From an uncultured Clostridia bacterium (GTDB taxonomy: Bacteria; Bacillota; Clostridia; TANB77; CAG-508), in NCBI GenBank assembly GCA_947632035.1, contig CANRNR010000002.1, positions 1 through 64,000 of the forward strand: DNA of 64,000 bases, read 5' to 3'. Shown here piece by piece: positions 30,068 through 41,199 of the stretch; within the stretch, counting starts at the first letter, position 1; the number at the start of each line of letters is the position of its first letter. Under the pieces are notes generated by a model. The model was not told the origin of the DNA. It did not search any database and saw only the letters and a program-made list of their open reading frames with translations. A program made the position numbers and the translations under genes.

Positions 30068-31897
30068 TTAAACTGGTAAAGAAATATTAAATGTAGTTCC
30101 TTTTCCTTTTTCAGTTTCATATGTAATATTTCCATTAAAGTGAGCACGAATAGTAGAATATGACATAAATAAACCAAGTCCTGTGCCATTTTTTCCTTTT
30201 GTAGTAACCATTTCTTTAAATAGCTTTTCTTGTACACTTTCAGGAAGACCACCTGCGTTATCTTTAATAGAAATAGTAATTTTCCTGTTTGTACCAGATA
30301 AAATTAAATCAATTTCTTCATTAGTTTTTCCGTTATATGCTTGAATAGCATTTGAAATCATATTGTTAATTACTTGTACTAAGCTATTTATGTTTCCTTT
30401 TAATATAATGTTAGGGTCTGCTTCCATTTTTACATTTAAAGTAATTAGGGCATTTTTTAATTCATGTTTCATTAAAATATCAACACGTTTTACTAGTTCA
30501 TCTAAATTAAATGAAACTGCTTGTTCTTCAGATAAAGTAACTGCTTGTCCTTTTACAGCAGTAATTACATCTGACATATATTCAGTATAATTTCTAATTT
30601 TTTCTACCCATTCTGTCATATCGCTTGCAATTGCGTGATGGTCATCTACTGTAACTTCTGGGTCTCCTACAGAAGAATTATACTCTTTTATTAAATCTGT
30701 TAAGCCTTCAGCAGCTCCTGCGATTGACATAATAGGAGTTTTTAAGTTGTGTGCAATACCACCAATTAACTGTCCAAGTGAGGCTAGGCGTTCTCTTTCC
30801 ATAAGCATATTTTGGTTTTCTCTAATTGTTTGCATATCCATCATGTGCTGAGTAGTGTCTTTAAATAGGATTAGAATTCCTAAAAATGTTTTATCGTTTT
30901 TTATATTATTAATTTCAATATTAAAATATTTTTGCTTATCTTTAACACTTTTTTCAAAATAGTAAGTTTTGTCAGTATCTTTAATAGAATTTATACACTT
31001 TTTTACATCTGATAAATTCATATTAAAATAGTTTTCATCATTAATTAATTCATCTATATTTTTATTACGAATATTATTGGATTTAAAATTAAACATATCT
31101 AAAAATGTCTTATTAAAATCAATAATAACATTTTCATCATTAATTACTAAATATCCATCTGACATTCTATCTACAATTCTTTGAAGCGCAATAGGAGTTA
31201 TTTTCATAAAATCAAATTTAAAAATAGCGAAAGCAATTATCAAAACCATAAAGGTAAATGAAATAGGTGTAGAATATGTTGTCATATTAACTACTTGAAG
31301 AGTAGCCAATAAATTAATGCTAAGTGGTATTAATGTACTAATAATTATTAGTATAGATTGTTTAGAAAAGAATCCTGAATTTTTAATTGAATATTTTAAT
31401 AAATAAATAAAACCAATAATAAATAATGTATATGTATAAAGGCTATGGACCATAAAATAATCACCATAAACCATTTGGTCTACATGAGGAGAATATACTT
31501 TAAAAATTAAATGATGATATTCATTGGTAAATGAAATAATAGCAGTTATTATTGGTATAATTAATAAAAGAAAATGATACCATTTAATTTTTAATTTAGT
31601 CTTTGCAAATATGATACCTACTGCTAAAAATGCAATTGGTGAAAACCATACTCCAATTCCTGCAAATTTTTCAAAAAGAAATGGATCAATGTCTGTATTT
31701 TGAAATAATATTTGCAAAATTGAACCAAAAGTCCAAATAAACATAAAAATAAGTAGAGTTAAAAAAGCAGTTTTTAGCTGGCTTTTTTCCTTTCTTTTAT
31801 AAAGCATATAAATCATTAAAATAATCAAAACGTCAGATACAATCATAGCACATAAAGAACCTAAATTTTCCATAACATCCTCCTTATAATAGTTCAA
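30068..31897 (-). CDS. sensor histidine kinase with N-terminal polytopic membrane sensor domain
   Basis: ~6-7 N-terminal TM helices, PAS-like linker, H-box IAHNLKTP, N/G boxes (NAIQAY, DNAGGLPE, GTGLGLFMS). Start overlaps NRPS stop by 14 nt. Confidence 0.8.
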   Translation of the reverse strand: MNYYKEDVMENLGSLCAMIVSDVLIILMIYMLYKRKEKSQLKTAFLTLLIFMFIWTFGSILQILFQNTDIDPFLFEKFAGIGVWFSPIAFLAVGIIFAKTKLKIKWYHFLLLIIPIITAIISFTNEYHHLIFKVYSPHVDQMVYGDYFMVHSLYTYTLFIIGFIYLLKYSIKNSGFFSKQSILIIISTLIPLSINLLATLQVVNMTTYSTPISFTFMVLIIAFAIFKFDFMKITPIALQRIVDRMSDGYLVINDENVIIDFNKTFLDMFNFKSNNIRNKNIDELINDENYFNMNLSDVKKCINSIKDTDKTYYFEKSVKDKQKYFNIEINNIKNDKTFLGILILFKDTTQHMMDMQTIRENQNMLMERERLASLGQLIGGIAHNLKTPIMSIAGAAEGLTDLIKEYNSSVGDPEVTVDDHHAIASDMTEWVEKIRNYTEYMSDVITAVKGQAVTLSEEQAVSFNLDELVKRVDILMKHELKNALITLNVKMEADPNIILKGNINSLVQVINNMISNAIQAYNGKTNEEIDLILSGTNRKITISIKDNAGGLPESVQEKLFKEMVTTKGKNGTGLGLFMSYSTIRAHFNGNITYETEKGKGTTFNISLPV

Positions 31898-39474: not shown

Positions 39475-41199
39475 ATGAAAAAAGAAAAGAGCAGAGTTGT
39501 TTATCAGGTAGATGAAATTAAGGATTTCAGAGAGCTTATTAGAAACACAGCAGAGAAATACCCAGAAAATATAGCTTATAAATATAAAGCAAAAAATGGA
39601 AAAGAAAATGTAGAATATATAAATAAAACTTATGCACAATTTAAAAATGATATAGAAGCATTATCAACAAAACTATTAAGCATGGGACTAGCTGGCAAAA
39701 AAATAGCAGTAGTTGGAAATAACCGTTATGAATGGTGTACTACATATTTAGCAGTAACAACTGGAGGAATGATAATTGTTCCATTAGATAAAGCATTACC
39801 AGAAAATGAATTAGAATCTTTAGTAATTAGAAGCGGTGCAGAAGCTATAGTTTGTGAAGAAAAATATGTTAAAACATTACTAAATTTAAAAAATAGTGAT
39901 TTAAAGCATATTATATGTATGGATGATACTAAAGAAGGTGGAGTTTTAGCATACTCTAATTTATTAGAAGAAGGAAGAAAGTTAAGAGAAGAAGGAAATC
40001 GCGATTATGAAAAAATTGAAATAGATAGAGAAGCAGTTTCAATTTTACTATTTACATCTGGAACAACAAATATTTCAAAAGGTGTTTTACTATCACAAAA
40101 AAATATTTGTAGCAATATTCAAGCTATTGCAAGCTATGTGCAAATGTTTCCAACAGATACACTTCTTTCATTCTTACCAATTCACCATACTTTTGAATGT
40201 ACTATTACCTTCCTTTTTGGAATTTATTTTGGTGTAACAGTTGCATTTTGTGATGGATTAAAATACATTCAAAAAAATATGAATGAATATAAAGTAACAG
40301 TTTTTGTAGCAGTTCCTTTAGTTTTGGAAAATATCCATAAAAAAGTATGGAAAGGCATAGAAGAACAAGGCAAAAAAGGCTTGATGAAAACAATGGTTGT
40401 TGTTACAAAGATGCTATCTAAAATAGGAATAGATTTAAGAAAAAAAGTATTTCAACCAATTATTGATAATTTTGGTGGAAAGTTAAGAGTAGTTTTTGTT
40501 GGTTCAGCTCCATTAGATAAAAAAATTATACATGGATTTAATGATTTTGGTGTAGATTTAATACAAGGTTATGGTTTAACAGAAACATCACCTGTTGTAT
40601 CTGCTGAAACAGATAAAGAAAAAAGACCTGGATCTATTGGTCTTCCATTATTTAATGTAGATGTAAAAATTGAAAATCCAGATGAAAAGGGAGTTGGAGA
40701 AATTCTTGTTAAAGGTCCAAGTGTTATGCTAGGCTATTATGAAAATGAAGAAGCAACTAAAAAAGCAATGCATGATGGCTGGTTTTCAACAGGAGATTAT
40801 GGCTATTTAGATAAAGACGGTTTCTTATATATTTGTGGAAGAAAAAATGATGTTATTGTTTTAAAAAATGGCAAAAATGTTTATCCACAAGAGCTAGAAA
40901 TTTTACTTAACCAAATACCAGTTGTAGAAGAAAGTATGGTGTTTGCAAGAAACAAAACATCAATGGACACTACTCTTTGTGCAAAACTTGTATATAATGA
41001 AGAAACAATGAAAAATCTTTATGGTGAAAAGACAGATGAAGAAAAACGAGAAATTATTTGGCAAGAAGTTAAAAAAGTAAATCAAACTTTACCAGATGTA
41101 AAGCATATTAAAGAAATTATAATTACAACTGAACCTCTTGCAAAAACAACTACACAAAAAGTAAAGAGATATGAAGAAATTAAGAAAGCAACTGATTAG
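39475..41199 (+). CDS. AMP-dependent synthetase/ligase (long-chain fatty acyl-CoA synthetase, FadD-like)
   Basis: AMP-binding motif LFTSGTTNISKGV, GYGLTETS, later invariant K; divergently transcribed from the NRPS. Confidence 0.8.
   Translation: MKKEKSRVVYQVDEIKDFRELIRNTAEKYPENIAYKYKAKNGKENVEYINKTYAQFKNDIEALSTKLLSMGLAGKKIAVVGNNRYEWCTTYLAVTTGGMIIVPLDKALPENELESLVIRSGAEAIVCEEKYVKTLLNLKNSDLKHIICMDDTKEGGVLAYSNLLEEGRKLREEGNRDYEKIEIDREAVSILLFTSGTTNISKGVLLSQKNICSNIQAIASYVQMFPTDTLLSFLPIHHTFECTITFLFGIYFGVTVAFCDGLKYIQKNMNEYKVTVFVAVPLVLENIHKKVWKGIEEQGKKGLMKTMVVVTKMLSKIGIDLRKKVFQPIIDNFGGKLRVVFVGSAPLDKKIIHGFNDFGVDLIQGYGLTETSPVVSAETDKEKRPGSIGLPLFNVDVKIENPDEKGVGEILVKGPSVMLGYYENEEATKKAMHDGWFSTGDYGYLDKDGFLYICGRKNDVIVLKNGKNVYPQELEILLNQIPVVEESMVFARNKTSMDTTLCAKLVYNEETMKNLYGEKTDEEKREIIWQEVKKVNQTLPDVKHIKEIIITTEPLAKTTTQKVKRYEEIKKATD

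Follow-up and report, generated by a model that had tools for sequence, protein, structure and literature searches.

A predicted peptide-aldehyde synthetase of gut Clostridia and its co-varying sensor kinase: a possible strain-specific signal and receptor pair

The stretch of DNA analysed here (the window) comprises positions 1 to 64,000 of the forward strand of contig CANRNR010000002.1 (GenBank assembly GCA_947632035.1), from an uncultured Clostridia bacterium placed by GTDB in TANB77; CAG-508, and has a G+C content of about 25%. Near its middle lies a gene for a nonribosomal peptide synthetase (NRPS) with condensation (C), adenylation (A), carrier (T) and terminal reductase (R) domains in the order C-A-T-C-A-T-R. 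It is followed on the same strand by a gene for a sensor histidine kinase with a seven-transmembrane (7-TM, domain 7TM) sensor and, farther on, by one for an HD-GYP response regulator, while genes for a FadD-like acyl-CoA ligase and an HtrA-family protease run the other way. The NRPS itself belongs to a known kind; the pairing with the kinase, the strain-variable cassettes that span both genes and the HD-GYP output are the part that appears to be new. The way in which NRPS and sensor vary together between strains suggests a strain-specific signal and its receptor, and not only a protease inhibitor. The features of the NRPS side are these, in window coordinates.

31884..39302, minus strand: NRPS C-A-T-C-A-T-R; longest open reading frame (ORF) 2472 aa, probable start ATG 39281, giving 2465 aa
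37953..39281, minus strand: C1, starter-type (lipoinitiation) condensation domain, residues ~8-450, motif HHLIADS
36408..37895, minus strand: A1, adenylation domain, code DAFWLGGTFK, Val-like
36168..36395, minus strand: T1, carrier domain, Pfam PP-binding at residues 977-1039, motif LGGDSL
34833..36140, minus strand: C2, elongation condensation domain, Pfam Condensation at residues 1057-1488, motif HHSISDG
33318..34790, minus strand: A2, adenylation domain, code DMVLQGESCK, matching no assignable code
33078..33305, minus strand: T2, carrier domain, PP-binding, motif SGADSL
31887..33005, minus strand: R, thioester reductase domain, NAD_binding_4 at residues 2113-2351, 140.9 bits
30068..31873, minus strand: sensor histidine kinase, 7TM-PAS-DHp-CA (HisKA_7TM 125.5 bits, PAS_9, HATPase_c)
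30006..30047, no strand: terminator of the NRPS-kinase unit, bidirectional and intrinsic, 19-bp stem
25798..26850, minus strand: REC + HD-GYP response regulator (Response_reg 63.4 bits, HD_5 130.3 bits)
30800..37770, minus strand: strain-variable cassette, from NRPS codon ~510 (start of A1) to kinase codon ~365 (end of PAS)

Pfam finds two Condensation domains (612 bits), two AMP-binding domains (508 bits) and two PP-binding stretches in the NRPS, and a reading of the translation for motifs located all of the catalytic ones. The C1 motif is at residue 139 and the C2 motif at 1184, the cores of both A domains are complete (TSGSTGxPKG, NxYGP(T/S)E, Y(R/K)TGD, GRxDxQVKIRG, NGKID), and both carrier domains have their serine motif. 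The protein is a modular type I linear NRPS, with ordered C, A and T domains and their motifs in each module. Translation probably starts at M8, because a ribosome-binding site (AAGGGG) precedes only the second ATG (39281) and not the first (39302), and because the NRPSs of relatives are called at 2465 aa. An exact database look-up with the 2472-aa protein gave no match, probably because the databases call the M8 start. The top NCBIfam model is AusA (NF047350), which scores 1610.3 bits over residues 375-2468, a span that leaves out C1; this score is under the curated cut-off of 2500 for membership of the AusA equivalog.

C1 was compared with starter and elongation domains. It aligns end to end with an SrfAA-type N-terminal C domain (256 bits, 32% identity) and scores 236 bits with the LchAA N-terminus, against 124-134 bits with its own C2. 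Among solved structures its top match is an elongation C domain (TycC C6, 117 bits), and the RzmA starter domain gives 80 bits. The SrfAA C1 sequence used as query matches B. subtilis database entries at 92-99% identity and was compared locally; the protein that gave the 256 bits is 92% identical to it. No carrier domain lies upstream of C1 in any locus, the upstream gene being the divergent ligase or HtrA in the loci examined. C1 keeps its catalytic His and Asp in 58 diverged relatives, with Ser or Ala after the Asp. Because the starter scores are about twice the elongation scores and His/Asp are kept in those 58 relatives, C1 is starter-type and under selection, and acyl transfer is its predicted function.

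The ten specificity positions of the A domains were taken from an alignment to GrsA-PheA (1AMU), whose own positions return DAWTIAAICK; the GrsA-PheA sequence used for this is an exact match to 1AMU residues 66-526. The A1 code is one position off the classical Val code. For A2 the usual code in the family is DMV[LTI]QGGACK. A basic or polar A2 substrate was considered from Glu322, Gln299 and Ser330, which was guesswork, and no substrate was assigned.

In the R domain, the Rossmann motif (GGNGFVG at 2113) and the Ser/Thr-Tyr-Lys residues (HISSTS, and YVESK at 2270) are intact, and these motifs are kept in the 58 relatives. The nearest solved relatives are 6VTJ ("Non-ribosomal peptide synthetase", 174 bits) and then the AusA R domain 4F6C (125.6 bits). 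6VTJ is presumably the carrier-reductase didomain of a rumen methanogen, which would suggest that this type of NRPS has moved between gut anaerobes. From the AusA-like affinity we infer release of an aldehyde by two-electron reduction. The original prediction, a first reading of the same DNA, had proposed a 2472-aa ORF with two complete modules, a starter-like first C domain and a terminal reductase (GGNGFVGSHI, YxxxK). Pfam and motifs agree with the two modules and the reductase, with the likely start moved to M8; NAD_binding_4, GGNGFVG and YVESK bear out the reductase, and SrfAA and LchAA scores about twice those to elongation C domains bear out the starter-like C1. It had named a non-functional or epimerisation-type C1 together with an R domain lacking its NAD(P)H site as what would count against it; C1 is starter-type, and the C1 His/Asp and the R Rossmann motif are both intact.

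The gene unit extends past the NRPS. It had been drawn to end at 31884, and that boundary holds for the NRPS but not for the unit, as the kinase gene begins 10 nt on. Read on the minus strand, the NRPS ends in GAA CTA TTA TAA, and then come GGAGGA, TGTT and the kinase ATG (31873). With this 10-nt gap, a consensus ribosome-binding site and no terminator between them, the two genes are predicted to be co-transcribed as far as the terminator at 30006..30047. The kinase has seven hydrophobic segments, and its H-box reads GGIAHNLKTP.

The kinase and the HD-GYP regulator are the most constant and most unusual partner of the NRPS, and were overlooked in the first reading. The regulator motifs HDIGK and HHEKFDGTGYP are intact in translation, and by its domains and motifs it would be an RpfG-type HD-GYP phosphodiesterase of cyclic di-GMP (c-di-GMP), an activity that is predicted. 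It is presumed to be the partner of the kinase. In the window the two are parted by a 3.2-kb insertion, which holds a HopA1-like ORF and an aminotransferase gene with a T-box.

The linkage was examined from both ends. Starting from the NRPS, a kinase follows in every homolog with a neighbourhood examined (42-96% identity, including one trimodular NRPS), and the regulator is close by in all of these loci except one whose contig ends first. Locus L013 is rearranged, yet ligase, NRPS, kinase, HtrA and regulator are still together in it. For the reverse test, an alignment of ten kinases was used to scan metagenome contigs, which gave 557 relatives, of which 80 were kept; NRPS counts were limited to the kinase-anchored loci with at least 1.5 kb upstream (71 of 80). 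An intact NRPS ORF ends between -32 and +395 nt from the kinase ORF in 70 of these 71 loci, and the remaining one has a fragmented NRPS there, so that every one of the 71 kinases has an NRPS before it. The regulator was found in 64 of 68 kinase-anchored loci, directly adjacent in 55 of the 68. The trimodular locus L016 (C-A-T-C-A-T-C-A-T-R) keeps the order HtrA, NRPS, 7-TM kinase, HD-GYP regulator; from this one locus, the kinase pairing does not seem to be limited to dipeptide products.

The window was then compared in sliding 150-nt windows with contigs of the same species from the same rabbit study (L011/L012). Against L012 the cassette at 30800..37770 has 37-78% nucleotide identity per 150-nt window, mostly 50-75%, between flanks of 89-99% on the NRPS side and 93-100% on the kinase side, and its breakpoints, at ~37770 and ~30800, are sharp. 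The proteins encoded around it are nearly the same in L011/L012 as in the window: HtrA 96.9%, ligase 97.7%, HopA1-like protein 95%, aminotransferase 96.7% and regulator 98.6% identical. Over their whole length the NRPS is 58.6% and the kinase 71.6% identical to its L012 counterpart, and the difference is concentrated in particular domains. In the NRPS, C1 is 97% identical, A1 41%, T1 42%, C2 51%, A2 58%, T2 66% and R 51%; in the kinase, the 7TM domain is 55% and PAS 48% identical, with DHp at 99% and CA at 97%. A second mosaic, L002, shares the same right-hand edge.

This pattern recurs in other species. When 58 non-redundant NRPS-kinase pairs were clustered at a threshold of 95% identity in transmitter and regulator, four backgrounds emerged, which together hold 10 alleles, two or three apiece. 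In all four, A1 and the 7TM domain differ between strains (30-80% identity) over a kinase core and regulator that are 95-100% identical. The A1 code varies among the alleles of every background, and the A2 code is identical or one I/V position apart. In the species of the window the A1 codes are Val-like and DITTMGMV-K; in a human-gut species they are Pro-, Thr- and Gly-like. The same-background pairs number 101. In 55 of them the NRPS (A1 to R) and the 7TM domain are each at least 95% identical, in the other 46 both fall below 95%, and none is discordant between the two. Ligase look-ups brought in six extra loci, none of which gave a further allele pair within a species.

Between L077 and L044 the variable parts are separate. 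One diverged block covers A1-T1 (~2.1 kb, 30-79% nucleotide identity, mostly 45-60%) and the other covers kinase codons ~105-354 (61-79%), and the two are non-contiguous, with 4.3 kb at 96-100% identity between them. Mantel tests of 7TM distances against those of the other domains, over 33 alleles, gave correlations with T2 (r=0.68), A2 (r=0.61), R (r=0.44) and C2 (r=0.42), all at p<=0.001, but not with A1 (r=0.05, p=0.19, not significant) or with the transmitter of the same kinase (r=0.01, p=0.44). L063 and L064 have the same A1 code across species, and their sensors are alike (74% identity).

On the other side of the NRPS lie the ligase and HtrA genes.

39282..39474, no strand: NRPS-ligase divergent intergenic region, 193 bp (172 bp from the first ATG)
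39475..41199, plus strand: FadD-like acyl-CoA ligase, Pfam AMP-binding + AMP-binding_C_3, monocistronic
41271..41304, no strand: terminator after the ligase, 15-bp stem
41442..42587, plus strand: HtrA-family serine protease, Trypsin_2 + PDZ

A divergent ligase across some 170 bp was part of the original prediction and is indeed there, at 172 bp or, with the M8 start, 193 bp. A scan for promoters returned the chance level (138 found, 138.2 expected). The ligase has its ANL motifs in translation (TSGTT..KG, GYGLTE, TGD, GRKND) and scores ~120 bits with solved CoA ligases (MenE, MatB, FadD13) and 86 bits with the fatty acyl-AMP ligase 3PBK. Three homologs, picked by identity tier (62%, 67%, 73%) and blind to neighbourhood, were used to look at the linkage from the ligase side, and 3/3 lie divergently beside a C-A-T-C-A-T-R NRPS that is followed by a HisKA_7TM kinase. 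Only 2/53 kinase-anchored loci have a ligase, however; it was found in the clade of the window and in L010, L013, L054 and L093. The proposed link between ligase and NRPS is thus real but is not a hallmark of the family. Since all three homologs adjoin such an NRPS, the ligase subfamily is dedicated to this NRPS; by the 2/53 count it is dispensable for the family, so that members without a ligase would have to draw their acyl donors from general cellular pools. In the window the FadD-like ligase is the probable acyl-donor supplier. The HtrA gene had been noted as lying just downstream, and it does, in a transcription unit of its own, since the terminator at 41271..41304 ends the ligase unit.

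These observations suggest a pathway and a use for its product. C1 would acylate Val-S-T1 with an acyl-CoA, which in this lineage would probably come from the divergent FadD-like ligase. C2 would then join a residue X, and R would release an N-acyl-Val-X aldehyde by two-electron reduction; with its N-terminus blocked, this product could not cyclise to a pyrazinone. An N-acyl-Val-X aldehyde is the likely product. The amphiphilic aldehyde would be the ligand of the membrane sensor of the kinase encoded downstream, which would phosphorylate the HD-GYP regulator and so change c-di-GMP hydrolysis. From strain to strain within a species, the NRPS module and the sensor would differ as a matched pair, which would make this a specificity-group (pherotype) system.

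That the N-acyl dipeptide aldehyde is the kinase ligand, with c-di-GMP turnover as the output and specificity groups like those of agr and Vfm, is put forward tentatively, as a prospect not far short of even. The tight gene coupling, the complete reciprocal linkage and a sensor that varies with the synthetase over a fixed core and regulator all point to it. The wider proposal, in which the NRPSs of low-G+C gut Clostridia act as autoinducer synthases, their di- or tripeptide aldehydes are sensed by 7-TM kinases and recombination swaps the pherotype cassettes, seems possible and somewhat more doubtful.

Several observations weigh against the ligand reading. The 101 pairs represent only ~8 independent allele comparisons, with one clearly non-contiguous case. 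The 3' half of the NRPS physically adjoins the sensor and crossovers depend on conserved stretches, so much of the co-variation can come from linkage by itself. The 7TM domains of three Thr-code alleles from different backgrounds are dissimilar (51-57% identity), and the PAS domain is sometimes common to alleles with different NRPSs. The regulator has no DNA-binding domain, and a c-di-GMP riboswitch was looked for near the NRPS and not found, the T-box being the only element there; for these two reasons no autoinduction loop is visible. Also, the 64-kb window has no gene for a phosphopantetheinyl transferase, type II thioesterase, MbtH protein or exporter. The linkage effects, the few comparisons, the Thr-code sensors, the shared PAS domains and the missing feedback element are what hold the ligand reading to a tentative level.

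The main rival is a plain secreted protease-inhibitor pathway with host or microbial targets. In it, variation in the NRPS would come from selection on which proteases are targeted, the two-component system of kinase and regulator would be a neighbour or loosely regulatory, and the sensor would diverge by hitch-hiking and fast evolution. The architecture fits the gut Clostridia NRPSs reported by Guo et al. in 2017 and the ruminopeptin synthetase, as secondary sources describe them. Most allele pairs show one contiguous diverged block that ends at the conserved H-box, a possible crossover site, and Thr-code alleles lack common sensors across species, both of which favour this rival. This explanation does not account for the 71/71 reciprocal linkage, the 10-nt coupling or the retention of the kinase through the L013 rearrangement. 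It also leaves aside the two non-contiguous blocks of L077 versus L044, and a 7TM domain that tracks module 2 of the NRPS and not its own transmitter; nor can the regulator act directly on transcription, because its output is HD-GYP. On this evidence we consider it rather unlikely as a full account, and protease inhibition by the same aldehyde alongside signalling is possible.

HtrA offers another explanation, an envelope-proteostasis module in which the aldehyde inhibits or tunes HtrA and the kinase senses the state of the envelope, not the compound. The HtrA gene is beside the NRPS in 34/53 loci and is retained in the rearranged L013, and htrA genes adjoining two-component systems are a known theme in Firmicutes. 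Yet HtrA is missing in about one third of the loci and sits in a separate unit behind a terminator, and it is 97% (96.9%) identical between the window and L012 alleles, whose NRPS and sensor differ, which places it outside the variable cassette. A generic sensor of envelope state also need not vary along with the NRPS. HtrA is a frequent neighbour whose membership in the system is uncertain, and the envelope module is improbable.

A pathway in which C1 is unused or structural, an AusA-like free dipeptide aldehyde goes on to a (dihydro)pyrazinone and the FadD-like gene serves lipid metabolism is more improbable still, for although AusA is the top curated family match (residues 375-2468), the ligase is missing from most family loci and pyrazinones are known signals elsewhere, C1 is full-length and starter-like with its catalytic His/Asp kept in 58 relatives, the ligase subfamily is specific to the side of this NRPS, and C1 hardly differs between alleles (97% identity), which would be expected if the domain is in use and its acyl donor does not change.

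The closest genomes to the window are metagenome-assembled genomes from rabbit gut ("uncultured Clostridia bacterium"), with NRPS identities of 96%, 75% and 62%. Clostridium cibarium has an NRPS with 37% identity, and no matching kinase lies near it. A protein search with the NRPS gave 2309 matches at E<=1e-50, and the architecture was read for the best 120. Of these, 53 are bimodular (~2.47 kaa, R at the end) and 47 trimodular (~3.5 kaa; P0004-P0075 are among them), and R is also terminal in nearly all of the 47. One NRPS cluster at 90% identity has 626 member sequences. Family loci have a G+C content of ~25-32%. RupA of R. bromii was considered as the identity of the abundant human relative and was dropped because those loci are at ~26-27% G+C.

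In the human microbiome, few biosynthetic genes are as widespread as those for the gut peptide-aldehyde NRPSs, which current discussion treats as a source of protease inhibitors. The branch described here is common, with more than 557 metagenome contigs matching the kinase search. If the ligand reading is true, part of this NRPS family would serve cell-cell communication or kin discrimination and would not primarily make host-directed protease inhibitors. An orphan 7-TM kinase family would gain a candidate ligand, the molecules a candidate native function, and commensal Clostridia a candidate c-di-GMP-linked means of strain-level recognition. The idea is directly testable, since the predicted ligands are small molecules within reach of synthesis and a single species offers natural allele pairs of both kinds, cognate and non-cognate. 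The searchable literature yielded no prior description of an obligatory NRPS-kinase pairing, of matched allelic cassettes or of the HD-GYP output, and no earlier description was found in the literature on Clostridia NRPS-kinase or HD-GYP links, pherotypes and HisKA_7TM.

The insertion between kinase and regulator has features of its own.

27040..28134, minus strand: HisC-like class I/II aminotransferase, in the kinase-regulator insertion; absent there in most relatives
28251..28499, minus strand: T-box leader upstream of the aminotransferase, 91.3 bits against an Rfam gathering threshold of 93, E=4e-19
28233..28266: stem forming the T-box terminator
28717..30006, plus strand: ORF of 429 aa with a weak Pfam match to HopA1, a type III effector family (25.2 bits, cut-off 22.7)

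The HopA1-like ORF is missing from L001/L005, the relative with 96% identity, and is present in L011/L012 at 95% identity, where a NUDIX gene lies beside it; the window is without that NUDIX gene. The HopA1-like ORF is a strain-variable insertion.

Elsewhere in the window, a FAD (DAO)/Rieske oxidoreductase gene on the plus strand is split into 45392..45643 (83 aa) and 45876..47012 (378 aa), likewise in L001/L005. The same gene is single, with 504-518 aa, in L002, L013 and L101, and the split copy is probably a pseudogene or a frameshift. The first 2 kb of the window have a G+C content of 15.5%. Near this end lie the gene of a type IV secretion coupling protein (2536..4338) and an ORF with a weak likeness to TrbC/VirB2 pilins (2049..2402), and positions 1..4400 look like remnants of a conjugative element. 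At 11393..12366 on the plus strand, a gene for a LytTR DNA-binding protein is followed by one for a DUF3021 membrane protein, a small regulatory pair unrelated to the NRPS. A C5 DNA methylase gene (49925..51193) and a non-specific endonuclease gene (56650..57501) lie beyond a pair of tRNA genes (48091..48164 and 48273..48345), with several large ORFs that have no Pfam match at 48491..49913, 53435..55684 and 60290..63336; the region 48091..63336 is possibly an integrated element, or else a defence island.

Among known systems, the NRPS is closest in kind to the dipeptide aldehyde synthetases of gut anaerobes. A gut Clostridia family of dipeptide-aldehyde and pyrazinone NRPSs was reportedly described by Guo et al. 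in Cell in 2017, and the rup (ruminopeptin) cluster of Ruminococcus bromii is said to have been described by Schneider and Balskus in 2018. These likewise have the order (C-)A-T-C-A-T-R with a terminal reductase, a likeness of architecture alone, and according to secondary sources they give a dipeptide aldehyde, predicted or observed, that carries an N-acyl group if an N-terminal C domain is present. Unlike the clusters as described there, the loci analysed here carry a co-transcribed 7-TM kinase, an HD-GYP regulator and within-species allelic cassettes. AusA/PznA, the aureusimine synthetase of Staphylococcus aureus, has the same A-T-C-A-T-R core, a Val-activating first module and reductive aldehyde release. 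It differs in having no linked kinase and no N-terminal C domain, which is why its product cyclises to pyrazinones.

The surfactin and lichenysin systems resemble the window at the start of the assembly line, where C1 aligns end to end with the SrfAA/LchAA starter C domain, which FadD-type acyl-CoA ligases feed, and an acyl-CoA ligase gene accompanies the NRPS. The identity is only ~30-32%, however, Ser or Ala and not Gly follows the catalytic Asp here, and the likeness is limited in that most relatives of the window NRPS have no dedicated ligase. For the rest of the pathway, the Xanthomonas Rpf/DSF system consists of the synthase RpfF, the FadD-type ligase RpfB, the sensor kinase RpfC and the HD-GYP regulator RpfG. 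The parts list is alike: the signal is lipid-like (a predicted one in the window), the ligase is of the FadD type, the kinase is a membrane sensor and the output is REC-HD-GYP; the synthase is a crotonase there and an NRPS here, and the phylum is another, so the resemblance is one of logic only.

The closest documented parallel to the allelic cassettes is the Vfm system of Dickeya. There, within-species blocks of 51-76% nucleotide identity interrupt DNA that is otherwise 93-99% identical. They lie in the adenylation genes vfmO/P and the membrane-protein gene vfmG, and by biosensor experiments they were shown to define quorum-sensing specificity groups (PMC9306890). The locus in the window shows the same pattern of diverged alleles in conserved DNA and, as in agr, the kinase core and the regulator are conserved. 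It differs from Vfm, agr and comQXP in having a whole NRPS with a terminal reductase as its putative signal synthase, the 7-TM/PAS half of the kinase itself as the variable sensor and a predicted HD-GYP phosphodiesterase, not a transcription factor, as the output; it is also a system known from its sequence alone. At that level it has what marks a specificity-group system: linkage and predicted co-transcription of synthase and sensor, and co-variation of the two over a conserved transmitter and regulator.

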